DNA of 64,000 bases, from the IMG/VR virus record IMGVR_UViG_3300029791_000002, positions 1-64,000 of that record; one strand, given 5' to 3'. Positions 8,432-54,220 of the stretch are shown here, in pieces. The notes below the pieces were generated by a model, which did no database searches, was not told where the DNA came from, and was given only the letters and a program-made list of their open reading frames with translations. Every line of letters begins with the position of its first letter. Positions within the stretch are counted from its first letter, which is position 1. Made by a program: the position numbers and the translations under genes. The DNA comes from a virus.

Positions 8432-11400
8432 ATGGCGTCAACGTGTATTATTAAAAGAGATAATAAAAAGAAAGTTGTTTCTGTCTCTACCAGATCAGGG
8501 GACAGGTCTATGTTGTTTGATAAAATAGCATCTATTCCTCTTATGGAAAATAGGGAGCGGGCTACTACTGTTTTTAAAACCGTATTTTCTAATAAGTTCT
8601 TAAAGGCTTTTGGCGACTGGAGAAAGAGAGTGCCTATCAACAAACCGGCTTATAATAAGGTAAAATCCAACATCGATCTTATTCCGGAAGCCTATAGAGA
8701 AAGGGTGCTGGATAAGGCTTCTAAGATGAGTAATCCTGTTCTTGTGTCAAAATCAGATGCACCTTATGAAATCCGAGAATCGGGCTTTGGATTCTACAGC
8801 CAAGATCTGGGTGATAATATTATGTTGGTGGATGCTATGGTTCCGTCAAGTATTTCCGTACCGGAAGGACCTGGAATAGACGCCGGTCAGTATCTACAAG
8901 ATACTATATCTTCGGACTTCACCCCCGTATCTATGGTACAGGATAAGGGTGTTAATTATATGGTTATAAAAGACGGTCTTAAGATATTTAGCCCAGAAGA
9001 GTTACCACAGACAGATTCTAATCCTGTGGGTGTAACGTATCAGACCGGAGAGCCTCGTTTGTTTTTCATGAACGATCGTAATCAATTATTTGAAGATTAC
9101 GGAGAAGCTCTTCGCTCTGGCGGGAATGATATTAGAATAGGATTCTTGTCAGGCACCGTTCAAGAATCTGCCTGGGATGGCGTGGCAGACATTACTTACA
9201 AGGCTGGAAAGTATGTTCTTAATAATCCAAAATCTTTTATACCGGTCATGACCGCTTCTGCTTCCACTTCTTTATCAACAAAAGGTGGTATAATTAACTA
9301 CCTTATAAAGAAAGGTCTTTTGTCCGGATCTAAGATATTCGATCCTGAAACAAGAAGCTATTATCTTACAGGAGAAGGTCATACAGGACAAATTAGACTT
9401 TTCAATTCAGCCTTATCCTACACTGAGCTCCGTAATCATTTTGGTTCCGATGTTTCCATGAACGACCAAGGTATGATAACCATAAGCTCGTTGGATAACA
9501 GTAAGGTAACGATGAGACTCGCCACCGGAGGAACGGAAAGGGTTAGCAAAGAGCAGATAAAGAACGATCTTAAGTCAGGAAGATACAATGAATTGGACGC
9601 CAAGTACGATCATTTTGATGCGCTTGTAGTTTCATTCATATTAGAAGACAACGATCTTTATGCTGATACTAAAGCTAAGATCGTATCGGATTATAGCAGG
9701 CAGGAACGTGACCAACGAAATTCTATTGTCGAGATACTGAAAACTCTTGGCGTTAGTGTCATAGGTATGACCGACTATATAGAGAAGTACCAAACCAAAT
9801 ACGGGCATGAACCTTCTGCTAAGGCATTGGCGGATATTGCCAATAACGTAATAGCAGTTGGTGAAGATGCTACTTTATCCGATTTAGTAGAAGAAACAGC
9901 CCACTTCCTTGTAGAGGCATACAGAGATCAGAATGCTGTTGAGGCTGTTCTGCAAGATGTAGAAGGTACGGAAGAGTGGAACCAGTATGCAGGTCAGTAT
10001 TATAATACATACGGTAAGGTATATGAAGGATCTGAGCTTGATAATGCCGTTAGGAGAGAAATTCTTGGAAAGATCCTCGCCAGGGAGATGCAGACCGGCA
10101 CAGCGCAGGCGTCGGTAGAGCCCACCTCCTTCCTGGGGCGCGTCCGGCAGCTTCTCTCTGGAATCGTAAGCTGGCTTAAATCAGCTTTATCAACCCAAAG
10201 ACAAGATTTGAATAACGTTATTAAAAACATTCGTGATCTTGCCATTACTGACATAGATAAAGGATTTGACACCTCTCTGTTAAAGGATAATGACTTTACA
10301 TTATACTCCCTTTCTTCTATGAACAAGAACAAGTTTCTTGAGTCTAAGATCAGATCGCTAAGAAAAACATTAAGAGACTTACGTCAGATAAGCTCTGATA
10401 GGGCTGTAACTACGTCTATGACCCTTGCGCAGCTTAAGACCATAGAAGATAAGATAAATAAGGTAGAGACCGAAATAGACAAGAATGAGATGGCGGCTGC
10501 CATGAACAGCATGATCTCTACAGCCGAAGCTCAGGTCAGATACTTAAGCAATGTGGTGAACACCATCCTTCATGGTGATACCAAAGACGGCAAGCTTCAT
10601 TTCAATACCAATGATCGAAAGAACGTAGATATTATCAACAATCAGGTTCTTCCGATCATGAACGATCTTCGAGGATATATCCGTAACAGAAGTACCGAAT
10701 TTGATGAACGTGAAAAGCAGGATTATACAAATAGGATCAATACCGTCATTGCCGACATCAATGGTATTCAGTCTGATATTAAATCAGTACAAGACCTTGA
10801 TGAAAGCACGTTGCTTGATAAGTTAATGAACGAACTTCATGTGCCGGCAGATAAGGTAAAGAGAGTAAAAGAATTTTTCGACAAGGTTCAACACGATGTT
10901 TCTTGGATAAGTAGGTGGTTTGGTATATTAGAGCATTCTTCCAGTCCGTTCAATAACGCTCTTGGAGCTATGATTGCCAAAGACAATTACAATGCGATGG
11001 TGAATGCCCAGCCCGCCATATCCGATTTCCTGGCATATGCGAAAAAGCATGGTTTTAACAAATCTGAATTTGAAAAACTGCTTCAGAAAGTAGATGGCAA
11101 AACTTCTAATTACCTTCGTAGTGCTCTTGATATGGCTAAATACGATCGTAATAAGAAGCTGGCGCAGATGCGAGCGTTTGCGACTGCCATGAACATAGAG
11201 ATATCAGAAGAAGAAATTGGTGATGTGGTTGACAATAACCGTAATTACGTATTTAAAAGAGAAGTAGTTGACAAGGATGGAAATACGGTTACTGAAAACG
11301 CTAAATTCAAACCATCGTCTGATAGAGTTAATACCGATATTTTTACCATCGAGCAGGAAAAGATCTATACAGAGCAGATGGAAAAGTGGGATGCTGAAAA

Positions 11401-14400
11401 TTCGGAACTGGAATTTAGCGAAAGTTATGCCACAAGAATGGAATCCATATACAAAAAGGCTGAAGAAGAATTAGGGCATCCGGTTTCTCAAACAACCAAA
11501 GAATACCTTAATGCTCTATCCAGGCAAAAACGGATATTGAGGCAGCCTTTTATTGATAGCGGTGGTAATTTTGATGAGGTTGCCTATTTTAAAAGCAGCA
11601 ATTACGAAGAAGAAGGACTGCTTCGTAAACAACGTAAGGAAGCAGCTTCAGAATACATATATGTAGGAACCAGGAGAGTGGAAAAAACCGGCGACCAACT
11701 TAAGATGGCTAAAGAAATACAAGCTATAAATGAAGTTTGGAGAAAGGAATCAAATAATGTTACCAATGCCGTATCAGAATCGTTTTTGCAAAAATTAAGA
11801 ACGATTCAGAGCGAGTCGGGAGGAGAAGCTGCGCTGAAGACACTTATGTTGGGAGGTCACCTGTCGTTCAATGATCGGTTTTGGAATGAAGTAGAATCGG
11901 AACAGTCGGCGCGTACCGAATCAAATAACAAGGCTTCGTATCTTAAAATGGCGCATGATATCATTAGTTCTACGACAAGTGATAGAGATGCGACTGACGT
12001 GGATTCGATTGTGAAAGATATAGAAAAAAATAAGGCCATTATCAAGGAAATAATCGGAAACAACCGAGATGTGGCTGATATCGGAGAAATTAACGAAGCG
12101 ACATTTACCTCATCTGAAAGAGATGCTTTTAGGGCCGCATCTGAAGCTATTGAAGCTGATTACGCTATCTTAATAGATTATGCTAAGATGGTGGGTCTTG
12201 AAGATATTGATAAGTACCTTACTAAAAGCAGTAAGGCCGAAAACGAAGTAAATCAGTCTTATTTAAATGCTCTTGCTGACTCCAAGGAAGTGGAATGGAA
12301 GTTCGTACAACGTCATACTACGGCGAAGAAAGCAAAAAGGATTCAGGCTTTAAGGGATAAGCTGTTTAAGGCTGCTGATAACCGATATCTGTTTACCGTA
12401 TCTGAAACCAACTACCTGTCAGAAAAGCTTGGTATAAGCAAAGAATTAGACGGTAGAGATTTCAGGAATGCTGTTAATGCTAAGATGGCCAGCTTGTTTT
12501 TAAATAATACAAGAGAAGAGGGCATAGAAGAGACCAATGCTATTGTTAATGAATTTGCCAGGAGCCAGGTCTTTTCGTACTATAAACGCATGGCGCCTAC
12601 CGGATATGCGGCCATGATCGACAAAATAGGTCGAGGTGAGATAGATGTGGCGCAGATGGTTAAGGACGTACAAAACGGTACATCCACCCAAGATTATGGC
12701 ATGGACATATCGTACCTGTCTTTCGATCCTGCAAGGGCATGGGTGGCTGAATCTGAAGCCGAAAATAGCGGCCGTAATCCTGATTATGTAAAAGATCATG
12801 GGTATGGTCATCGAATGCCTAAGAAAAGCCTGTATCGTGATGAATCGTATTTCAATGACTTTGGTATCAAGTATGATGCTGACGGTAATGAAGTTGCTAC
12901 TAAAAACGTAGAGCAGTGGAATATGATTCAAAAACTCAAGGAAATAAAAAGACAATCGCTTGATCTATACAAAGAGCAGAGTCCTAATCTGTATGCTATT
13001 CCACAGATATCAAAACAAGACATAGAACGTGTAGAAGGATTGGGTATTAACTTCAAAAATACGGTTCGTAATTTTGTATCAGATCTGTGCCTGGACAGAG
13101 TAGACGATTCTCTATATGGTAAGACCAGGCAAGGGGAAGTATATGATCCGGAAGACAGACTTAGGTCTATACCTAAATACTACATATATGAGTTGGAGAA
13201 CCAAGATGATGTATCTCACGATTTTGGCTACTCTTATTCGATGCTTATGATGCAGTCATCGTTATATAACGAAAAGCAGAAGTCTATAGAGCTTGCCCAA
13301 GGACTGGAGCAGATGTTACTGAATAAACAATTTGAAGGCGGTAAGAAGGCTGAAGCAACCCAAGCATATCAGATGTTCAGGGACTTCTTCAACGATCATT
13401 ATTATGGCATTAGGATGAACACCAAAAAACTTACGGTGAACATCGGAGGATATACGGTAGACCTTACAAGAATTATGATGGCTGTTGAAAGATTTATGTC
13501 GGTTATGAACCTGGCACTGTCTCCGTTTGTGGCAGCTACCGGCGCCCTGACAGGTCATATCAACCTCATCATGGAATCTGCCGTAGGACAGTATATAAGC
13601 AAAGACTCCCTTAAATACGCATCGGCTGAGTTTTCACGTCTTGCGCCATCTTGTATAGCAGAAACCGGAGACATAGATAGGAAAAGCAAATTATATGTCA
13701 TAGGTGAGAGAATGGGGATATTCAATATCCGAAATCGTATGTATGGTGCCGGATACAATAGAGCGGCCAGGACCTTAATGCGTTCGCCTATGTATGCTTT
13801 TATGGAAATCCTGAACTACCCTCTTGATCCGCAGGTTATGATTGCTACTATGGACAATGTTCGTTATTACAAAGGCCGGTTCTACACGTTCCAAGATTTC
13901 AAGATGGAAAAAGAACGCAATAAAGAACAGAGTACCATAAAAAGAGAATGGAACGCATTAAAAGATCGTACTTTATGGAGTATGGTAGACGTCGTGGATG
14001 GGAAGGTGGTTGTAAAGCCAGGATCGGGTGTTACTGTTGAGGAAGTAGAAACCCAGATGGCTATAACCAGAAATCAAGTTCGTAGCTTGTCGCAGATATG
14101 CAACGGATCTTTGAATGAAGAAAACCGAACTGCCGCATCGCGCAACTGGATAGCCAGGTTCATGACCGCCCACCGAGGATGGTTGGTGCTGTCGGCTCAA
14201 CGTCTGTGGAAAAGACGTGGCTTCAATTTCCAGACAATGCAAGAAGAGGAAGGGTTGTCAATTACGTTAAAGAATATGATAGCCAAAACATTTAGCCTGG
14301 CTTCCGAGTCTGGTATGAAAAACATCATAGATGCCTGGAATGAAAATAAAGACAATATGAATGAGGTAGAAAAAACCAATCTCAAACGTCTCAGTGTCTA

Positions 14401-14854
14401 TGCCGGCACGTTCCTTATCATGCAGGCCGTATCTATGCTTCTTGCCGGATGGCGTGATGATGATGAAAACGAAGAAAGTTGGCTTACTCAATTTGGATCC
14501 TATGTCGGATTCAGAACCATAAACGAAATAGCTTCACAGATGCCGTTTATTATGGAGCTTAACGTGGTAGATATCATTAACGATCCGTTTGTTATGGGGC
14601 GAAAACTGAAGGATCTTACCGATCTTAGGAATTATTCACTTGATAAAGTAACATCCGGTACATACAAGGGAGAGTCTAAGTTATTTAGGCAACTCGCCAA
14701 ACAGACGTTTATCAAACAATGGTATAATATCAAGACGCCGGAAGACGTAGCGCGCGCCTATAATTGGTGGCAGCAGACGAACAACAAGTCAATGATGTTC
14801 TTCATCGGCGCTACTCCTGATTCGGAAGGGGACGATGATGTTAGCTACAAGTAG
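8432..14854 (+). CDS. giant 2140-aa protein of unknown function (candidate virion-packaged/ejected protein)
   Basis: Single 6.4-kb ORF ending at a strong terminator; mixed alpha/coiled-coil composition; no polymerase or enzymatic motif recognised by eye. Confidence 0.8.
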   Translation: MASTCIIKRDNKKKVVSVSTRSGDRSMLFDKIASIPLMENRERATTVFKTVFSNKFLKAFGDWRKRVPINKPAYNKVKSNIDLIPEAYRERVLDKASKMSNPVLVSKSDAPYEIRESGFGFYSQDLGDNIMLVDAMVPSSISVPEGPGIDAGQYLQDTISSDFTPVSMVQDKGVNYMVIKDGLKIFSPEELPQTDSNPVGVTYQTGEPRLFFMNDRNQLFEDYGEALRSGGNDIRIGFLSGTVQESAWDGVADITYKAGKYVLNNPKSFIPVMTASASTSLSTKGGIINYLIKKGLLSGSKIFDPETRSYYLTGEGHTGQIRLFNSALSYTELRNHFGSDVSMNDQGMITISSLDNSKVTMRLATGGTERVSKEQIKNDLKSGRYNELDAKYDHFDALVVSFILEDNDLYADTKAKIVSDYSRQERDQRNSIVEILKTLGVSVIGMTDYIEKYQTKYGHEPSAKALADIANNVIAVGEDATLSDLVEETAHFLVEAYRDQNAVEAVLQDVEGTEEWNQYAGQYYNTYGKVYEGSELDNAVRREILGKILAREMQTGTAQASVEPTSFLGRVRQLLSGIVSWLKSALSTQRQDLNNVIKNIRDLAITDIDKGFDTSLLKDNDFTLYSLSSMNKNKFLESKIRSLRKTLRDLRQISSDRAVTTSMTLAQLKTIEDKINKVETEIDKNEMAAAMNSMISTAEAQVRYLSNVVNTILHGDTKDGKLHFNTNDRKNVDIINNQVLPIMNDLRGYIRNRSTEFDEREKQDYTNRINTVIADINGIQSDIKSVQDLDESTLLDKLMNELHVPADKVKRVKEFFDKVQHDVSWISRWFGILEHSSSPFNNALGAMIAKDNYNAMVNAQPAISDFLAYAKKHGFNKSEFEKLLQKVDGKTSNYLRSALDMAKYDRNKKLAQMRAFATAMNIEISEEEIGDVVDNNRNYVFKREVVDKDGNTVTENAKFKPSSDRVNTDIFTIEQEKIYTEQMEKWDAENSELEFSESYATRMESIYKKAEEELGHPVSQTTKEYLNALSRQKRILRQPFIDSGGNFDEVAYFKSSNYEEEGLLRKQRKEAASEYIYVGTRRVEKTGDQLKMAKEIQAINEVWRKESNNVTNAVSESFLQKLRTIQSESGGEAALKTLMLGGHLSFNDRFWNEVESEQSARTESNNKASYLKMAHDIISSTTSDRDATDVDSIVKDIEKNKAIIKEIIGNNRDVADIGEINEATFTSSERDAFRAASEAIEADYAILIDYAKMVGLEDIDKYLTKSSKAENEVNQSYLNALADSKEVEWKFVQRHTTAKKAKRIQALRDKLFKAADNRYLFTVSETNYLSEKLGISKELDGRDFRNAVNAKMASLFLNNTREEGIEETNAIVNEFARSQVFSYYKRMAPTGYAAMIDKIGRGEIDVAQMVKDVQNGTSTQDYGMDISYLSFDPARAWVAESEAENSGRNPDYVKDHGYGHRMPKKSLYRDESYFNDFGIKYDADGNEVATKNVEQWNMIQKLKEIKRQSLDLYKEQSPNLYAIPQISKQDIERVEGLGINFKNTVRNFVSDLCLDRVDDSLYGKTRQGEVYDPEDRLRSIPKYYIYELENQDDVSHDFGYSYSMLMMQSSLYNEKQKSIELAQGLEQMLLNKQFEGGKKAEATQAYQMFRDFFNDHYYGIRMNTKKLTVNIGGYTVDLTRIMMAVERFMSVMNLALSPFVAATGALTGHINLIMESAVGQYISKDSLKYASAEFSRLAPSCIAETGDIDRKSKLYVIGERMGIFNIRNRMYGAGYNRAARTLMRSPMYAFMEILNYPLDPQVMIATMDNVRYYKGRFYTFQDFKMEKERNKEQSTIKREWNALKDRTLWSMVDVVDGKVVVKPGSGVTVEEVETQMAITRNQVRSLSQICNGSLNEENRTAASRNWIARFMTAHRGWLVLSAQRLWKRRGFNFQTMQEEEGLSITLKNMIAKTFSLASESGMKNIIDAWNENKDNMNEVEKTNLKRLSVYAGTFLIMQAVSMLLAGWRDDDENEESWLTQFGSYVGFRTINEIASQMPFIMELNVVDIINDPFVMGRKLKDLTDLRNYSLDKVTSGTYKGESKLFRQLAKQTFIKQWYNIKTPEDVARAYNWWQQTNNKSMMFFIGATPDSEGDDDVSYK

Positions 14855-44328: not shown

Positions 44329-44670
44329 TTATGGTATTATTTGACTGTACGCAGACTTTTCCATGTACACAATACTATGCTCCTGTCCAAGTATTTTCTT
44401 TGCTGCTTCTTTCTTTATCGCGCAATATCTCCCTGTACGATACGGATTCTTTTGATCTGATCCATCCTCAACTTCGATAATAAAACAACCTCCGTCATCT
44501 ATTATCTTTTTGCAATTGTCACATATTTCTCCCGTGCATATATGATGCGGCGCCTGCCCTTTGATGTTATTCCCTAATAAAGCAATCCCCATCTCTTCAC
44601 CGCATACTATGCATAGTTCTATGGATGGATTCAACCCATGCTCTGGATGCAATACAATACCGTCTTTCAT
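44329..44670 (-). CDS. zinc-binding protein (113 aa)
   Basis: CIVCG...HHICTGEICDNC. Confidence 0.5.
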   Translation of the reverse strand: MKDGIVLHPEHGLNPSIELCIVCGEEMGIALLGNNIKGQAPHHICTGEICDNCKKIIDDGGCFIIEVEDGSDQKNPYRTGRYCAIKKEAAKKILGQEHSIVYMEKSAYSQIIP

Positions 44671-45218
44671 TTTCTATCCTCCTTTATTAATTCTATTATA
44701 AACTTTTTATCTTGTTCCCACAATGGCAGCCCTTCTTTTACTGTGTATGCCACTGTTTCCCTCTCTCCTATTAATCGCACGGCAATCTCTCTTGCTTTCA
44801 AGTCATCCTCCTCATGCGATTTGTTTATTAAATCATAGGCACATGATTCCACCTTTTGCCTTTCGATTATTATCGAACCCATTAACTCGCTTATATGCGA
44901 TCCTAAAAACGATAAGACATTAATAGCTTTCCCAATATCATTTGAAATAGCACTTGCTAAATACATCTTATCCATATACTCCGGCAAAGCCTCGTATGCC
45001 GTTTCTATGTTTTTATACTGATTTTCGTTTACCTCCCTTTTAATCAGTTCTTCAAATTCTTCTTTTAACATGTTCTTCCCTATTTTAATGTTGTGTGAGA
45101 TCGCCGGAATCGAACCGACTTGCTGCACCATGAATCCCATAAAGCAAATGCTCCGATCTTCGCAGATGGGAGCATTCTGTCTAAAGCATAAGAAAATTAA
45201 TGAAGAAATTTTTCTCAC
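44667..45218 (-). CDS. hypothetical protein (183 aa)
   Basis: ORF. Confidence 0.5.
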   Translation of the reverse strand: MRKISSLIFLCFRQNAPICEDRSICFMGFMVQQVGSIPAISHNIKIGKNMLKEEFEELIKREVNENQYKNIETAYEALPEYMDKMYLASAISNDIGKAINVLSFLGSHISELMGSIIIERQKVESCAYDLINKSHEEDDLKAREIAVRLIGERETVAYTVKEGLPLWEQDKKFIIELIKEDRK

Positions 45219-45406
45219 TTACGCCATAACATCTAAAATAGCTATCAGCACTATTTCTATGACAAACATAATAGAAAATATCTTAAATGCCTTTTTCATA
45301 TCGCTATCTCCTCCTTTTTATTTTTTTTAGTTCCACAATAAACTGTTCCGGCTCTGCTCCGACCTACGTTCCACCTACAACCGCAGGCCTTAGCCCAAGG
45401 CGCCGC

Positions 45407-45676
45407 CTACTCCCCCTCTATGGCAGCCTGTTCGTACCTACAAATCCAATCTCCATCTATACAACTATCACTACGCGATAATAAACATTTATCCTTATAA
45501 CAATCATAAAAAATACACCTATCACAACTGTAATCCTTAACGTCTACACAGCTAACTACCTTAGCATATACTATTCCATCACTGCCTTCTATTCCTTTTA
45601 CCCCGAAAATAGAACCTTCTACCTCCTTACTCAAATCTAAGTCAGGCGCAAAGTCATATACGTTCATACCATCCAT
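45407..45676 (-). CDS. Cys-rich hypothetical protein (89 aa)
   Basis: ORF with 7 Cys. Confidence 0.4.
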   Translation of the reverse strand: MDGMNVYDFAPDLDLSKEVEGSIFGVKGIEGSDGIVYAKVVSCVDVKDYSCDRCIFYDCYKDKCLLSRSDSCIDGDWICRYEQAAIEGE

Positions 45677-45786
45677 ATTTTAATTGTTAAACATCCCGCT
45701 TAAAAAAAAATACTCACATAATGCAGTCCTCAACCCTTAATCTGTTGGAAGGAACCTATATAATGCTGTTTTAAACCCTTATCATA

Positions 45787-45984
45787 TTGAATTTTGTGGA
45801 AATGATCTACAGAACACTGTTTTAAAACGCTTATCTATTGAATTTTGTTGGTAGGGAGTTGAATTTTGTTGGTAGGGAGTTGAATTTTGTTGGTAGGGAG
45901 TTGAATTTTGTTGGTAGGGAGTTGAATTTTGTTGGTAGGGAGTTGAATTTTGTTGGTAGGGAGTTGAATTTTGTTGGTAGGGAG
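45787..45984. repeat. tandem array of 7 perfect 21-bp direct repeats (TTGAATTTTGTTGGTAGGGAG) plus one degenerate upstream copy
   Basis: Copies at 45838-45984 are read directly and identical; a partial copy TTGAATTTTGTGG lies at 45787-45799. Confidence 0.9.
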
Positions 45985-46705
45985 TGCCCTCCCTCTCCCC
46001 CTCTCCAACCCCGGCTAATCCTCCGGCTTTCCGCATAGAACCTGCGCTCTCACACCTCGCTACAGGCATACGAAGAGCGCTACAAGCTTATACTCTGGCA
46101 TGGAGTATGGGGGATTTGGAGATAATATCATTCCATAGAGAGAATAGAGAGACTTCAGCCCACGCCCTACCGCCTGCTCCTCCTATCAAGATAGATATTC
46201 AGACCTATAATCAAAGCCAAAAACGAAAAGCAAAAAACCATCACAATATTATACTGATCTGGTCCGTACTCTAACATAGACCTTACTCCAACCGATAAAA
46301 AATACAGGTCAGCTACTAATAAAAACCACCACATAAAATAAAAAATTTACAATAAGTGTGTCCGAAAATACGGGTATCATAAAACCTAACTAATTGATAA
46401 TCAAGCATACCTTATTTTTAAGAAAAGTACAATAAGCCTAATTTTCAATCCATAGAGACGAAAAAGGCGGCATCCGACGCCCTATTTTGGGCCAGAAAAC
46501 CGCCTTAAGTTTCGTTTTAAACCAATTTTAACGACATGATATAGACAAAATACCGGCATTATATCCGAACTCTCATATTTTAGTTTCGTTTTAGACCAAT
46601 ATAGCACACATCCGCCGTTCACTCTCAGAATATCTTACCCTTAAATAGAAAGGGTAGGATACGAAAATAGGGCTGCTCCGATATTCGGAACAACCCTATC
46701 CCTAT

Positions 46706-46912
46706 TTAAATACTGTTTATGTTTTCTTTCACGTATGTTCGTGATGTATGGACTTTACGTTTGCATTTGTCCTTTCCTGTATCGGCATGATACGCTTCTT
46801 TGAGATCACGATACAACATAAATTCCCGATACGCTCTTTTCCGCTTTTCTTTAGCTTCTTTCCTGGACAGACCGCGGACGTCTACCATATGAGATTTAAA
46901 TTTCCTTTCCAT
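46706..46912 (-). CDS. small basic protein (68 aa)
   Basis: ORF in a poorly coding region; K/R-rich. Confidence 0.35.
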   Translation of the reverse strand: MERKFKSHMVDVRGLSRKEAKEKRKRAYREFMLYRDLKEAYHADTGKDKCKRKVHTSRTYVKENINSI

Positions 46913-46934
46913 TTTCTTTATGCTTTAATTATGA

Positions 46935-47105
46935 TTAACTCCAGCGGTTAAGTGCTTCGATATAGAAACCTTCCGCCTCTTTGTACTCACTTTCGCTCAA
47001 TGTTTCCACCGTCTCGATATAGTTACGCAATGTTATTTTTACGCAACTGTTTTTAGATTTATTGAACGCTTCAATTAAAGCGTTGATCATTTCTTTCTTT
47101 CCCAT
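46935..47105 (-). CDS. small hypothetical protein (56 aa)
   Basis: ORF below track cutoff: MGKKEMINALIEAFNKSKNSCVKITLRNYIETVETLSESEYKEAEGFYIEALNRWS. Confidence 0.3.
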   Translation of the reverse strand: MGKKEMINALIEAFNKSKNSCVKITLRNYIETVETLSESEYKEAEGFYIEALNRWS

Positions 47106-47632
47106 GTTATTGTATTGTTTATAATTTAGAGGTTGCTCCGGAATCGAACCGGACGCGCATTCCTATCCTGTACGAATTTTATGCTACAACCAACAGCCCG
47201 TAATTAGTACGTAGTTCTTGTGTACAGGCCCGTACTATGTTGTTATTATATTTTCCGTCTGCTACACAACTTAGCCACAAATAAAGGCGATTGTGTCCTT
47301 GCGTTTTGATACGACACGTCCCTACATGGTAGGCTACATGCTTGTACCCTGTAATTTAATCTACAGCCTTGTTCTATTTTTTCGTGTAAGCAAGTAAGAC
47401 ACGTTTCGATCTGGAGACAAACCTCGTACAACGGCATGTTTTCCAAACTGTAATCACATACCTAACATAAACCGCGCTTATTCAACGTAGTTCATGCAGT
47501 AATACCAACCCTTTGATTGCCAACGGCAAGGGCAACGGTATATTTGCCTTCCAATATGTAAAATAACTCTCTGCTTGTCAGCTTCAGTCTAAAGCATACG
47601 CGGGACGTGCACCCACTGACAATGGCGTACAG

Positions 47633-47666
47633 GCGCGTTTAACGGTACGCGCCTAACCTTTTTTTA
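47633..47666 (+). terminator. +-strand intrinsic terminator-like hairpin at the end of an ORF-less region
   Basis: GGCGCGT-TTAACGGT-ACGCGCC, then TAACC and TTTTTTT. Confidence 0.4.
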
Positions 47667-48203
47667 CTGCTGGTTGCTTTCGTGCGCCAAATATTCACTC
47701 ACACACTTTGCAATGGTACGGATTGAATAAGATTTGATCTTAACAGCCACATAAGTAGCTTTATACTCGTCGTTTTCTTTTATCAACCATTTAGTGCTTT
47801 TTTTGGTCTCCAATGATTCGGCAGTAGTAAAACCAAATGATTTATATTCGCTACCGTAAACCACATTCTCAGCGCACCAATCAGCCGTTTTAGCCTCAAC
47901 GCCTTTCTCTTTGTCTGCATTGGTATCCTTATACACTTTAGAGTATAAAGCAAATTTAACAAATGTATCGTCAACTTTCGGTAACATTTGGCTACACACA
48001 GCTACCAGGCGTTTTTTATCCTTGGCGAGGGCTGCTACCTTTACAGCGTATTCTGCCGGTATTTCCAAAGCCTTGCAAATGGATTTCAAATCAGATCCAT
48101 TTGAAAATAGAGCGTTGTACAGTTTAACAGCACCTACCAAATTTGCGGCATTCTCTTTAATAACAGCGTTTTGCAGCTTGTTTACATTTTTTTTCGTAAT
48201 CAT
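47664..48203 (-). CDS. hypothetical protein (179 aa)
   Basis: ORF. Confidence 0.6.
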   Translation of the reverse strand: MITKKNVNKLQNAVIKENAANLVGAVKLYNALFSNGSDLKSICKALEIPAEYAVKVAALAKDKKRLVAVCSQMLPKVDDTFVKFALYSKVYKDTNADKEKGVEAKTADWCAENVVYGSEYKSFGFTTAESLETKKSTKWLIKENDEYKATYVAVKIKSYSIRTIAKCVSEYLAHESNQQ

Positions 48204-48531
48204 ATCCCAATATATTTTAATTGTTAAATCAAATTAATGACCCACAACGCGGGCAATTACAGATACATATATAGTTAGCCCAACGGGTACACTATATAGG
48301 TTCATCATGTTAACTTGCGATCTCTCTCGATCACGACGCAAATATACGAAATTTGTTGTTGCTACAAATATATATGCTATCTTTTTTTTGTTAACTTGTA
48401 TTAATTTCGATTCTATCGTCTGATTATCAGCAATTTATAAAACGAACGAGAGCGGTATTACACGCGTACATTAATATGTAGGATATATGCTTATTTAAGT
48501 GGCTTATAATCAATAATTTATAATAATACAT

Positions 48532-48568
48532 TGATTATCAATAATTTAAATAAGTTATTGATAATCAG
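48532..48568. promoter_or_regulatory. perfect 13-bp inverted repeat TGATTATCAATAA-11 nt-TTATTGATAATCA, with a nearby direct copy of ATCAATAATTTA
   Basis: Exact dyad read directly in an AT-rich intergenic region. Confidence 0.5.
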
Positions 48569-48670
48569 CGAGTTTGTAGGTTTGAGATAAAAACGCGTTT
48601 CCGATTTTCCAGCGAAGGGGGTGTGGGGGAGAAAACGCGTTTCGGGGGCGGGAGGTTCGTGATAGGTACC

Positions 48671-48857
48671 CCCTCTCTCCCATCACATAAACATCTTTCA
48701 TATCCCTCATTACATAAACATCTTTTACCCTCTCTCCCATCACATAAACATCTTTCATATCCCTCATTACATAAACATCTTTTACCCTCTCTCCCATCAC
48801 ATAAACATCTTTCATATCCCTCATTACATAAACATCTTTTACCCTCTCTCCCATCAC
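48671..48857. repeat. 3.3 tandem copies of a 57-bp unit (each containing two ACATAAACATCTTT cores), preceded by G-rich tracts (48611-48660)
   Basis: Copies at 48671-48727, 48728-48784 and 48785-48841 are identical, followed by 16 nt of a partial copy. Confidence 0.9.
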
Positions 48858-48930
48858 CCACCCACCTCACACACAACAAGAAAATAGGATTGATAGAAAC
48901 CAATCCTATTTAAAACACGACCTTATTAAT

Positions 48931-49890
48931 TTATTTAATTGAAGTAAGTTTATGGTTTTCAAGGAAGTCCTTAAACTGGTCACTTGATACATCTATAACA
49001 AATCCAGCAGCACCAGCATGTCCTCCACCACCGAATCTCTTACTTACCTCACAGCAATCTACGCTGTCTTCCACGCATTCATAAAGAGAGAACCTAACCT
49101 TACCACCTGGCATGATACAAAATGGCATAAGGGCTTTAATTTTTCTACCGTCTAACCAGTCTCGTGTAAGAGAATCAAATACTTTAGAACTAAATTCTGT
49201 AGTATTCATCGCCACGACCTTAACCTCGTCGACGTAAGCTTCGAACGAGTACCTACTTACCTCATCTTCGTTTTTACCAGCCATGTAGTTAATTATAGCA
49301 CGTCCTTCTTTAGCAAGATCATAAAAAATAAGATCAATTTCATTGTCTTTCATATTTTCTTTAAAGTGATCATATAAATACGACAATGCAATCAATACAT
49401 TGAGTCTTATTTTTGATCTCAAGGCATACTGGACAGCTACTACCGTATCCCAGCCTAAACCGGATTCTTTATTCCACACATCGTAGTCTGACAAGCACCG
49501 GACGATCGCAGGCACCTTCCCCATCAGCAGGTCGGCGGCAAGTGCGCACGCACCGACACCGACTCTCCTCAACCCTGGAACAGTGAACCCCCATGTCTTA
49601 CTATCTTCGATAATTCCCTTATGATGATCTATCCACATCAGGCCCTTTCCTTCATCAAGCCACTTTTTGAAAACCGTTTTAGAATCGGCTCCGAAAGACA
49701 CGTCAAGAACATAAACAACATCTAAATCACGCACCTTGCTGGTAACTTTCTTAACATCATCTTCATACGAATACGGGATATAAACAACATCCCTGTCTTT
49801 ACTGTTTTCGTACATGGTTGCGATAGCTGCCGATACAACGCCATCCAAATCCGATTTATGATAAACTATTGCTGTATTCTTTACTTTCAT
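48931..49890 (-). CDS. DHH/DHHA1 phosphoesterase (NrnA-like nanoRNase / pAp phosphatase family)
   Basis: HKSDLDGVVSAA (motif I), LMWIDHHKG (DHH), C-terminal GGGHAGAAGF (DHHA1 GGGH). Confidence 0.8.
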   Translation of the reverse strand: MKVKNTAIVYHKSDLDGVVSAAIATMYENSKDRDVVYIPYSYEDDVKKVTSKVRDLDVVYVLDVSFGADSKTVFKKWLDEGKGLMWIDHHKGIIEDSKTWGFTVPGLRRVGVGACALAADLLMGKVPAIVRCLSDYDVWNKESGLGWDTVVAVQYALRSKIRLNVLIALSYLYDHFKENMKDNEIDLIFYDLAKEGRAIINYMAGKNEDEVSRYSFEAYVDEVKVVAMNTTEFSSKVFDSLTRDWLDGRKIKALMPFCIMPGGKVRFSLYECVEDSVDCCEVSKRFGGGGHAGAAGFVIDVSSDQFKDFLENHKLTSIK

Positions 49891-49899
49891 AATATGAGA

Positions 49900-50478
49900 T
49901 TATAAATTTAAATCAAGATCCTTACCAACAAACCGAGTAACATCCATATAGTCAATACCAGCATTCTCAGCACATACCTTATCCGAATCAGAGAACTGCC
50001 CTGGTAGGCCACTGGCGTCCCCGACCATCAACGAACATTCCTTAAGTTGACTAAAGTTCATACCGTGCATTACAGTGTCTTTACATTCCATAAGGACATC
50101 ATCAATCATGCCAGTGTTAGGCTTCCTCATCGGATCTTGTTTATCATTGGAATAACATAGTCGCTTTTCATATATCACGCCTCTTATGCCACGTTTTACC
50201 GCCAAATCATGTACGGACCTCAGTACGTATTCTATCTTAGCTTCAATATCAGCTCCAGAAACAAACCCAGCTTCTACTCCTCCTTGATTGCTTACGATAG
50301 CAAATACCTTAACACCGTTCTCCTGCATGAGGTCAAGAGCCTTATTCACCACATCCATCTTAATCCTCATATCTGTCAAGTCTGTAGCGAACGTATTCCC
50401 AGAAGCGGTTTCTATAAGCGTCCCGTCAAAATCAAATAGCAGTATTCTTTTATTTTTAATATCTATATCGTTCATCAT
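49900..50478 (-). CDS. HAD-superfamily phosphatase (polynucleotide 3'-phosphatase-like)
   Basis: LLFDFDGTLIET (DxDGT), FAIVSNQGGV (motif II), DASGLPG (motif IV). Confidence 0.65.
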   Translation of the reverse strand: MMNDIDIKNKRILLFDFDGTLIETASGNTFATDLTDMRIKMDVVNKALDLMQENGVKVFAIVSNQGGVEAGFVSGADIEAKIEYVLRSVHDLAVKRGIRGVIYEKRLCYSNDKQDPMRKPNTGMIDDVLMECKDTVMHGMNFSQLKECSLMVGDASGLPGQFSDSDKVCAENAGIDYMDVTRFVGKDLDLNL

Positions 50479-53842: not shown

Positions 53843-53859
53843 TGTCTTACTTTTTTTAG

Positions 53860-53931
53860 AGGCTTGTGGCGGAATCGAACCGCCCTACGAGATTTTGCAG
53901 ATCCCTGACTAAACCACTCATCCAACAAGCC
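53860..53931 (-). tRNA. tRNA-Cys (GCA)
   Basis: Cloverleaf folded by hand: acceptor GGCTTGT/ACAAGCC, D-stem GATG, anticodon stem GGGAT/ATCTC with loop CTGCAAA, T-arm GGCGG-TTCGATT-CCGCC; no encoded CCA. Confidence 0.75.
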
Positions 53932-53934
53932 ATG

Positions 53935-54006
53935 TAGCCCATGCCTGAATCGAACAGGCAACTTTTGATTAGGACTCAAAGGTTTTATCCGTTAAACTAA
54001 TGGGCC
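53935..54006 (-). tRNA. tRNA-Arg (CCU)
   Basis: Acceptor GGCCCAT/ATGGGCT (G1:U72), D-stem GTTT/AAAC, anticodon stem TTTGA/TCAAA with loop GTCCTAA, T-arm GCCTG-TTCGATT-CAGGC. Confidence 0.7.
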
Positions 54007-54075
54007 GTTTAATGTTTGCTATGTTCACACACCGCAAACACTGAGATAATTAACATTTCCACAAAAACTTAATCG

Positions 54076-54146
54076 TTATCCAAGGAGGATTCGAACCTCC
54101 GATAACAGAACCAAAATCTGTTGTGTTACCACTACACCATTGGACA
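54076..54146 (-). tRNA. tRNA-Gln (UUG)
   Basis: Acceptor TGTCCAA/TTGGATA, D-stem GTGT/ACAC with loop AGTGGTA, anticodon stem ACAGA/TCTGT with loop TTTTGGT, T-arm GGAGG-TTCGAAT-CCTCC. Confidence 0.7.
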
Positions 54147-54147
54147 G

Positions 54148-54220
54148 TGGTCCCGGAGGGATTTGAACCCACGATCTTGCGGTTATGAGCCGCCTGCTTT
54201 CACCACTAAGCTACAGGACC
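54148..54220 (-). tRNA. tRNA-Met (CAU) (elongator Met, or Ile2 if lysidinylated)
   Basis: Acceptor GGTCCTG/CGGGACC, D-stem GCTT/AAGC with loop AGTGGTGA, anticodon loop CTCATAA, T-loop TTCAAAT. Confidence 0.7.

Follow-up and report, generated by a model that had tools for sequence, protein, structure and literature searches.

A hypervariable 57-bp minisatellite with proposed iteron-like cores beside a conserved control region of an epsilon crAss-like phage

The DNA analysed here (the window) is a stretch of 64,000 nucleotides, positions 1 to 64,000 of the IMG/VR record IMGVR_UViG_3300029791_000002, and belongs to an epsilon crAss-like phage with 88.7% identity to crAssE-Sib (OR575929) across the array region. 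The tandem array sits in a 727-bp gap separating two minus-strand genes. One of them encodes an NrnA-like phosphodiesterase of 319 aa (48931–49890, minus strand; assigned from the list of open reading frames and the crAssE-Sib annotation), which served as the anchor for gathering relatives, and the other is an unannotated gene for a 179-aa protein (47664–48203, minus strand). The intrinsic terminator of the phosphodiesterase operon was located at 48882–48911 on the minus strand by a terminator scan and as an inverted repeat. Its T run measures 7–10 nt among relatives, and on the minus strand the array starts about 25 bp past it. On the gene strand, the terminator is followed by the array, the invariant flank, the GC block, the AT-rich stretch, the ACGCGTACATTAATATGTA element, the −7 box and the 179-aa gene, which is the first gene downstream of this non-coding region. 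The array lies at the far upstream edge of a conserved control region of about 470 bp, which heads the last operon, of about 2 kb, ahead of the genome end estimated by PhageTerm. Elsewhere in the window, four tRNA genes (Cys-GCA, Arg-CCT, Gln-TTG and Met-CAT) are clustered at 53859–54220 on the minus strand, as in the crAssE-Sib annotation. Gene orientation and GC skew flip at about 15000, a convergent point, and the 2140-aa open reading frame at 8432–14854 on the plus strand may encode the giant virion RNA polymerase-like protein of crAss-like phages.

TRF called the array at 48671–48857 with a period of 57 bp, 3.3 copies, 100% matches and a score of 374, together with a nested period of 27, and a direct-repeat scan returned three 73-nt copies at a 57-bp offset with an identity of 100%. 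The array has six copies of the core CAYCACATAAAC (written as an oligonucleotide, CATCACATAAACATCTTT), at 48681, 48708, 48738, 48765, 48795 and 48822, with steps alternating between 27 and 30 bp. Outside the array, a single match with one mismatch was found across the 64 kb; the chance expectation for the core was 0.73, and none of 100 shuffles reached seven. The array can therefore be described as six sub-units of about 27 or 30 bp, each composed of the core, MTYTTT and a CT-rich linker, in which a conserved 18-nt head CATCACATAAACMTYTTT is followed by the CT linker, prone to indels, and a TCTCTCC tail. Within the units, ACAT..ACAT occurs in direct orientation only, and an inverted repeat is absent. 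Because the left flank ends like a unit and the right flank starts like one, the 16-mer CCCTCTCTCCCATCAC brackets every 57-bp copy in the window. The composition confirms the C/T strand asymmetry noted in the original prediction, as G is entirely absent from the plus strand of the array and the GC skew is −1.000 over 48680–48859; the G-rich tracts followed by 3.3 copies of a 57-bp repeat with six cores were likewise found exactly where that prediction had placed them. Head-to-tail 57-bp units (27 + 30 bp) within invariant flanks are the organisation of a VNTR or minisatellite. When the array was examined as a possible CRISPR or CRISPR mimic, unique spacers were absent and the inter-core segments were themselves repeated.

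The DNA adjoining the array on the side of the 179-aa gene is strongly conserved. The invariant left flank TTCGTGATAGGTACCCCCTCTCTCC (48656–48680), which terminates like a repeat unit, has a column conservation of 0.996–0.999 among 58 distinct relatives. It is followed by a GC block (48590–48655), delineated by reading the sequence and by motif and repeat searches, in which two identical 12-bp palindromes AAAACGCGTTTC at 48590–48601 and 48632–48643 lie 42 bp apart from start to start. This pair, missed by the original prediction, constitutes the sole two AAACGCGTTT sites in the window. The palindromes frame G5-TGT-G5, and G5-C-G3-A-GG comes next; the G tracts are GGGGGTGTGGGGGAG at 48617–48631 and CGGGGGCGGGAGG at 48643–48655. 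Motif searches and composition define an AT-rich stretch at 48420–48570 with TGATWATCA boxes and IHF-like matches, 100–250 bp from the array. The GC content drops to 13–23% over 48470–48589, and the E. coli IHF consensus WATCAANNNNTTR is matched four times inside 56 bp (48508–48563). A palindromic TACAT..ATGTA element with ACGCGT, ACGCGTACATTAATATGTA, at 48462–48480 shows a conservation of 0.97. The Bacteroidetes −7 consensus is TAnnTTTG, and a box of this type, TATATTTG, could be read on the minus strand at 48365–48372 as a putative promoter of the 179-aa gene, in a region (48360–48420) with a conservation of 0.95–0.98. Over the 58 distinct sequences, column conservation reaches 0.96–1.00 at 48580–48680, compared with 0.79–0.97 per 20-nt block, mostly 0.80–0.93, in the coding sequence of the 179-aa protein, which indicates that the GC block is more constrained than most coding DNA. 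A near-identical leader, TTTAACAATTAAAAT(AT)ATG, precedes on the minus strand both genes that follow arrays in this region, at 48204–48230 and 45677–45700.

The original prediction proposed copy-number variation among isolates as a check, and the outcome was positive. The phosphodiesterase retrieved 159 relatives in IMG/VR, from which 80 loci with at least 92% amino-acid identity were taken. The 79 relative loci carry 0–15 cores (mode 4) in units of 22–35 bp, mostly 27–33 bp, and copy numbers from short-read MAGs are to be taken as lower bounds because the arrays break short-read assemblies. Short-read MAGs may also collapse arrays; the order and type of units still differ between genomes. In total, 98 distinct unit variants were observed, with the unit order shuffled between genomes and the flanks invariant over the 79 loci. 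The 18-nt head is kept better than the linker over these 98 variants. Nearly all relatives have at least one core beside the invariant flank, and a single perfect core is present in one group of relatives (L040). Exactly one copy of the 57-bp segment of the window was found in two genomes whose flanking kilobases diverge from those of the window by 5–14%, and this, together with the 100% identity of the copies in the window, indicates that the threefold expansion in the window is recent. The open reading frames called over the array are repeat artefacts, as had been suspected, because the length of many units is not divisible by three and none of the frames stays open consistently. We consider it firmly established that the 57-bp array is a minisatellite, hypervariable and without coding function, and that it adjoins a control region under strong constraint.

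More divergent loci were reached via contigs encoding homologs of the 179-aa protein; a locus search in IMG/VR with the distant homologs P0126 and P0129 gave nothing. In L203, whose 179-aa homolog is 43% identical, we found a GC inverted repeat with GGGGTACC, which is also part of the left flank in the window, and two palindromes of the AACGCGTT type with the same spacing of 42 bp as in the window, as well as a TATCAATAATTTA box, a TACGCGTACAT element and a −7 box. At the position of the array, L203 has only two short T/G-rich motif copies, and further on it has four TTGGTTTAAAtCGAAAC copies, a G-rich block and an array of 42 bp × 4.2. In L212 (36% identical), about four degenerate purine-rich units stand beside GAGAGGGAGGGGGTACCCCC and one AGAACGCGTTCT palindrome, the GGGGTACC of the flank is retained as in L203, and an array of 41 bp × 3.4 is homologous to the second array of the window described below. 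In L213, five direct GGCAACGCGC repeats take the place of the palindromes, and L208 is a 2.57-kb Logan contig that starts in a GC block. WATCAATAATTTA-type boxes also occur in L203, L208 and L212, TACGCGTACATTATATA elements related to ACGCGTACATTAATATGTA in L203, L207, L212 and L213, and TAyATTTGCA lies upstream in every divergent homolog. The layout common to the lineages with 36–43% identity thus comprises short direct repeats, a GC block with GGGGTACC and AACGCG, AT/IHF-like boxes and a −7 box. The architecture is thus old, and the repeat motif beside the GC block differs between lineages. A repeat motif that changes with the lineage is what would be expected for a co-evolving pair of protein and site. 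When viral contigs were scanned for the paired palindromes, matches were confined to this phage group and two unrelated high-GC phages (L103 and L127), which we regard as chance matches.

The 179-aa protein has an orphan fold. Its AF2 model (pLDDT 91.4, pTM 0.81) consists of an N-terminal five-helix bundle and a C-terminal beta domain, for which a structural neighbour was absent in both PDB and BFVD, and no family could be assigned. Neither sequence nor fold revealed similarity to Rep, winged-helix, ParB or HTH proteins. A full-library search found homologs with 21–43% identity in metagenomes only. Pfam and PHROGs searches with ten neighbouring open reading frames gave as informative matches only PNK3P, a tail-like protein and domains of unknown function, and no Par-like match was found by the same searches among the genes flanking the array.

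A second hypervariable array lies about 2.7 kb from the first, at 45750–46012. It consists of about two 51-bp basal units, a 21 bp × 7 repeat (45838–45985) and a C-run block. The 21-bp repeat is a local expansion within the basal unit of about 51 bp, CTACAGAATGCTGTTTTAAAACGCTG..TTGAATTTTGTTGGAAG, which is present in 2–9 copies in relatives, together with other sub-unit expansions. The resemblance between the two arrays that the original prediction had remarked on is borne out: the motif CCCTCTCYCC recurs directly after the 21-bp array, at 45991, and both arrays are hypervariable, carry a block of G/C runs at one edge and coincide with assembly breaks. Of 41 IMG/VR contig ends nearby, 20 fall in the 57-bp array, 18 in the region of the 21-bp array (45758–45943) and three elsewhere. 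About one-third of the clusters of the 179-aa protein, among the matches listed, are encoded on Logan contigs of about 2.5–2.85 kb, including the largest clusters with thousands of members. One such contig (L215) that was read starts with one unit of the 57-bp array and finishes with the first unit of the other array. The inter-array segment (45986–48670, about 2.7 kb) is a separate contig of about 2.75 kb in many Logan short-read assemblies. The two arrays thereby explain a systematic artefact, in which genomes break at two fixed points and an orphan contig of about 2.75 kb recurs. A scan of 185,579 species-representative bacterial genomes with the invariant flank gave one match, on a 3.9-kb contig (L083, NZ_DXLG01000138.1) in a Veillonella MAG. 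This contig is a fragment of this phage ending at the array, and its place in the bin is almost certainly due to misbinning and not a sign of the host, so the lone match provides neither a prophage nor a clue to the host.

Several further features were observed in and near the inter-array segment. A 560-bp, GC-richer non-coding stretch between small minus-strand genes (47106–47663) may be a non-coding RNA. Within it, an acceptor and T-arm resembling those of a tRNA, GGTTCGATTCCGG, lie at about 47131–47195 on the minus strand, called by neither ARAGORN nor Rfam, and a terminator-like hairpin lies on the plus strand at 47631–47654; the minus-strand fold of the stretch has a z of −1.8, and a similar T-arm-like element is found at the same position in L203. 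A second tRNA-like T-arm, GGTTCGATTCCGGC, at about 45095–45170 on the minus strand, precedes the true start (about 45071) of the open reading frame at 44667–45218 and is also negative by ARAGORN.

The original prediction also pointed to potential G-quadruplexes in the G tracts. The G-rich block is indeed exceptional for this genome, as G4Hunter ranks the tracts among its top three peaks in the window, and the potential is real. The quadruplex on the plus strand would be non-canonical, since the block at 48617–48652 passes the pattern only if one loop of 14 nt, formed by the palindrome, is allowed, and the arrangement of the G runs is lost in distant relatives. A pattern scan for the canonical motif (G3+N1-7 × 4) found only two in the window, both on the minus strand at the right edge of an array (48842–48863 and 45987–46012). 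Many relatives have just three G3 runs at the right edge of the array, and the canonical motif is specific to the subgroup of the window.

How could such a variable array be maintained at the edge of a constrained region? We tentatively favour, with somewhat less than even confidence, the interpretation that the cores are candidate iteron-like protein-binding sites at the distal edge of the origin or control region of a phage without its own polymerase. Replication slippage or unequal recombination between short direct repeats would add and remove repeat copies, a process probably aided at the array edges by mirror repeats of polypurine/polypyrimidine and by G/C runs. The conserved cores would serve, in the manner of iterons, as reiterated sites for a phage-specific DNA-binding protein. 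If one or two sites suffice for such a protein, the extra copies would drift freely or could tune its loading or titration. The whole module would most likely be an origin or control region from which the phage recruits the host replisome; the genome encodes a beta clamp, an SSB and a helicase, and epsilon crAss-like phages lack a DNA polymerase (PMC7886860).

This interpretation is supported by three observations, namely the occurrence of the module at one place in the genome, the deep conservation of its architecture and the dependence of its repeat motif on the lineage. The core, the palindromes and the motif of the 51-bp unit are confined to the array region within the genome of about 151 kb, and other sizeable arrays are absent. 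This confinement to one region suggests a cis element acting at a single locus rather than a dispersed operator or regulator. Iteron systems include the pSC101 origin, P1 incC/incA and the lambda origin, with phased repeats of a period of about 22 bp. The array resembles them in its tandem direct repeats with a conserved core, adjoined by an AT-rich stretch, IHF-type boxes and a GC-rich segment, and in its position upstream of a gene, its uniqueness in the genome and a motif that changes with the adjacent protein between lineages. Irregular spacing, a free copy number and the lack of a recognisable initiator weaken the case. Iteron origins have direct repeats of about 17–22 bp at regular, helically phased spacing; in the arrays here, the period is mostly 27–33 bp (22–35 bp overall) and irregular, and a spacing that varies between 27 and 33 bp would not hold the sites on one helix face. 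Copy numbers from about 1 to 15 among close relatives would be unusual for the essential iterons of an origin. In contrast to iteron arrays, a DnaA-box cluster is absent near the array and no recognisable Rep was found, the adjacent 179-aa protein, although confidently modelled, matching no family, PDB entry or fold; it may still be an initiator of an unrecognised type. There is also no GC-skew inflection at the array locus, although the skew tracks gene orientation in this genome, and the conservation within the units may reflect only a recent common descent of the copies.

In a rival explanation, the array is a neutral VNTR, a by-product of slippage in a pyrimidine-rich spacer with mirror repeats that separates the terminator from the actual control region, and function begins only from the GC block onward. 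The array does behave like the VNTRs used in strain typing, which also have head-to-tail units of tens of base pairs between unique flanks, polymorphism in copy number and order, and a tendency to collapse or break when assembled from short reads. The number, length and order of the units vary freely, down to the one perfect core of the L040 group, the core spacing has no phase lock, and the distant L203 retains only two short motif copies at this position. The very recent expansion in the window, with its identical copies, also fits, and the G-quadruplex and mirror-repeat motifs at the edge could foster the instability. Neutral drift does not readily account for the retention of at least one core beside the invariant flank in nearly all relatives, nor for the persistence of the 18-nt unit head beyond that of the linker across the 98 variants. 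Moreover, lineages whose repeat sequences are unrelated also have short direct repeats at this position, and two independent arrays are kept in the region over deep divergence. Unlike plain VNTRs, the array adjoins DNA more conserved than the neighbouring genes and keeps its core, which suggests more than junk. On balance, we consider neutrality rather unlikely.

The iteron-like interpretation can be extended to both arrays. With their blocks of G/C runs, they could be the cis handles of a sub-terminal module of about 2.7 kb that acts as an origin and/or in episome maintenance, which we regard as improbable. If this were true, the arrays would load or tether a lineage-specific protein of orphan fold, for example the adjacent one of about 180 aa, and the copy number would tune replication or persistence, analogous to iteron/incA and the oriP family of repeats (FR) and built from unrelated parts. 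The F plasmid sopC is composed of 12 units of 43 bp, and the family of repeats of the EBV oriP of about 20 units of 30 bp. The arrays are similar to these in being long arrays of units of about 30–43 bp, of which few copies are enough and whose number varies between isolates, and in having a second cis element about a kilobase off. Unlike sopC, the units lack an inverted repeat for a dimeric binder, and there are no ParA/ParB-like genes next to the locus. A partition centromere of the sopC/parS type was rejected on these two grounds, the units having no inverted repeat and the flanking genes no Par-like matches. Another crAss-like phage has been suggested to live as a phage-plasmid (PMC10983915).

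Packaging was another function suggested by the original prediction, and the comparison with crAssE-Sib disfavours it. In this explanation, the array would be a packaging or sub-terminal repeat close to the genome end, in which terminase or an accessory protein would recognise repeated sites. Base 1 of crAssE-Sib was set by PhageTerm with p = 1.5e-22 (PMC11054128), and this start in a relative is the sole estimate of the terminus for the phage group. By alignment, it corresponds to position 46624 of the window and falls between the arrays, 2047 bp from the 57-bp array and 0.64 kb from the other. Such a location, the restriction of the motifs to one place in the genome, the cluster of IHF-like boxes and the many contig ends at the array speak for packaging. 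IHF-type boxes are also found in lambda cosB; the repeat arrays of T7 adjoin its terminal repeat, and herpesvirus 'a' sequences carry DR arrays and reiterations. As in T7 and the herpesvirus 'a' reiterations, variable arrays with G/C runs lie a few kilobases from the inferred end and flank it. Unlike in those viruses, the end, as estimated by PhageTerm in the relative, is 2 kb away and has a separate repeated motif of its own. A pac or cos element would be expected within about 100–200 bp of the terminus, and the published estimate for the relative places it 2047 bp off the array. Two copies of GTTTCGTTTTARACCAAT are found at 46509–46526 and 46583–46600, the second of which ends 24 bp before 46624, so that a different conserved repeat lies 24–115 bp from the estimated terminus. 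No further GTTTCGTTTTARACCAAT occurs in the genome, and in L203 the motif is present four times (TTGGTTTAAAtCGAAAC on the gene strand). We therefore consider GTTTCGTTTTARACCAAT a better candidate for pac than the 57-bp array. The contig ends are fully explained by tandem repeats that break de Bruijn graphs, and none of the 41 falls at 46624. In crAssE-Sib, a minus-strand gene block spans the region, and the divergent strand switch and the terminase genes are 15–20 kb off (about 20 kb for the latter); the variable copy number is also at odds with packaging, for which we see only a slim chance.

It is just as doubtful that the array acts as part of a non-coding RNA, either a G-less, CU-rich transcript of the plus strand starting near the first palindrome or a purine-rich one of the minus strand, functioning as a sponge for protein or RNA. 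Long intergenic regions of the crAss-like phage phi14:2 are transcribed very highly from the earliest time point (bioRxiv 10.1101/2020.03.07.982082), and these abundant early RNAs offer a precedent. The strand purity of the array is complete, with a plus strand devoid of G, and a TAGGTTTG box on that strand at 48576–48583 resembles the Bacteroidetes −7 element. This box is only moderately conserved and missing in L203, which makes a plus-strand promoter a weak rival, and on the minus strand the array comes after a good intrinsic terminator. Rfam had no match at E ≤ 1 in 45000–50000 and only chance-level matches at E ≤ 10, and lax scans of 47050–47700 and 48200–48940 likewise returned only chance-level matches. 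Folding of 48575–48700 on both strands, as RNA and as DNA, was not above that of shuffled sequences (z of +0.4, −0.5 and +0.6), and neither strand gave a folding signal.

Finally, a phase-variable promoter, as raised in the original prediction, or a repeat-containing coding gene is very improbable and was rejected on the comparative data: the copy number is variable and 57 bp, a multiple of three, leaves three frames open across the array of the window, but units of 28, 29, 31 and 32 bp are frequent, an open frame is absent in 10 of the 13 arrays with at least seven cores and differs in strand and phase in the others, the array lies at least 300 bp upstream of the conserved −7 box rather than between promoter elements, and its units of 22–35 bp are much longer than those of contingency loci, typically 1–8 bp.

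In kind the arrays are ordinary, because viruses are well known to carry variable tandem arrays close to control regions and termini. They are not described in the crAssE-Sib paper (PMC11054128) or by Yutin et al. 2021, who defined the epsilon group (PMC7886860). Epsilon crAss-like phages account for about 13–18% of crAss-like reads in human gut viromes (PMC7886860), and the array offers a VNTR marker with which strains of an abundant gut phage can be tracked. Beyond this use, the locus points to a compact non-coding module, conserved over deep divergence, which is the foremost candidate for the origin or control region in this uncultured group.
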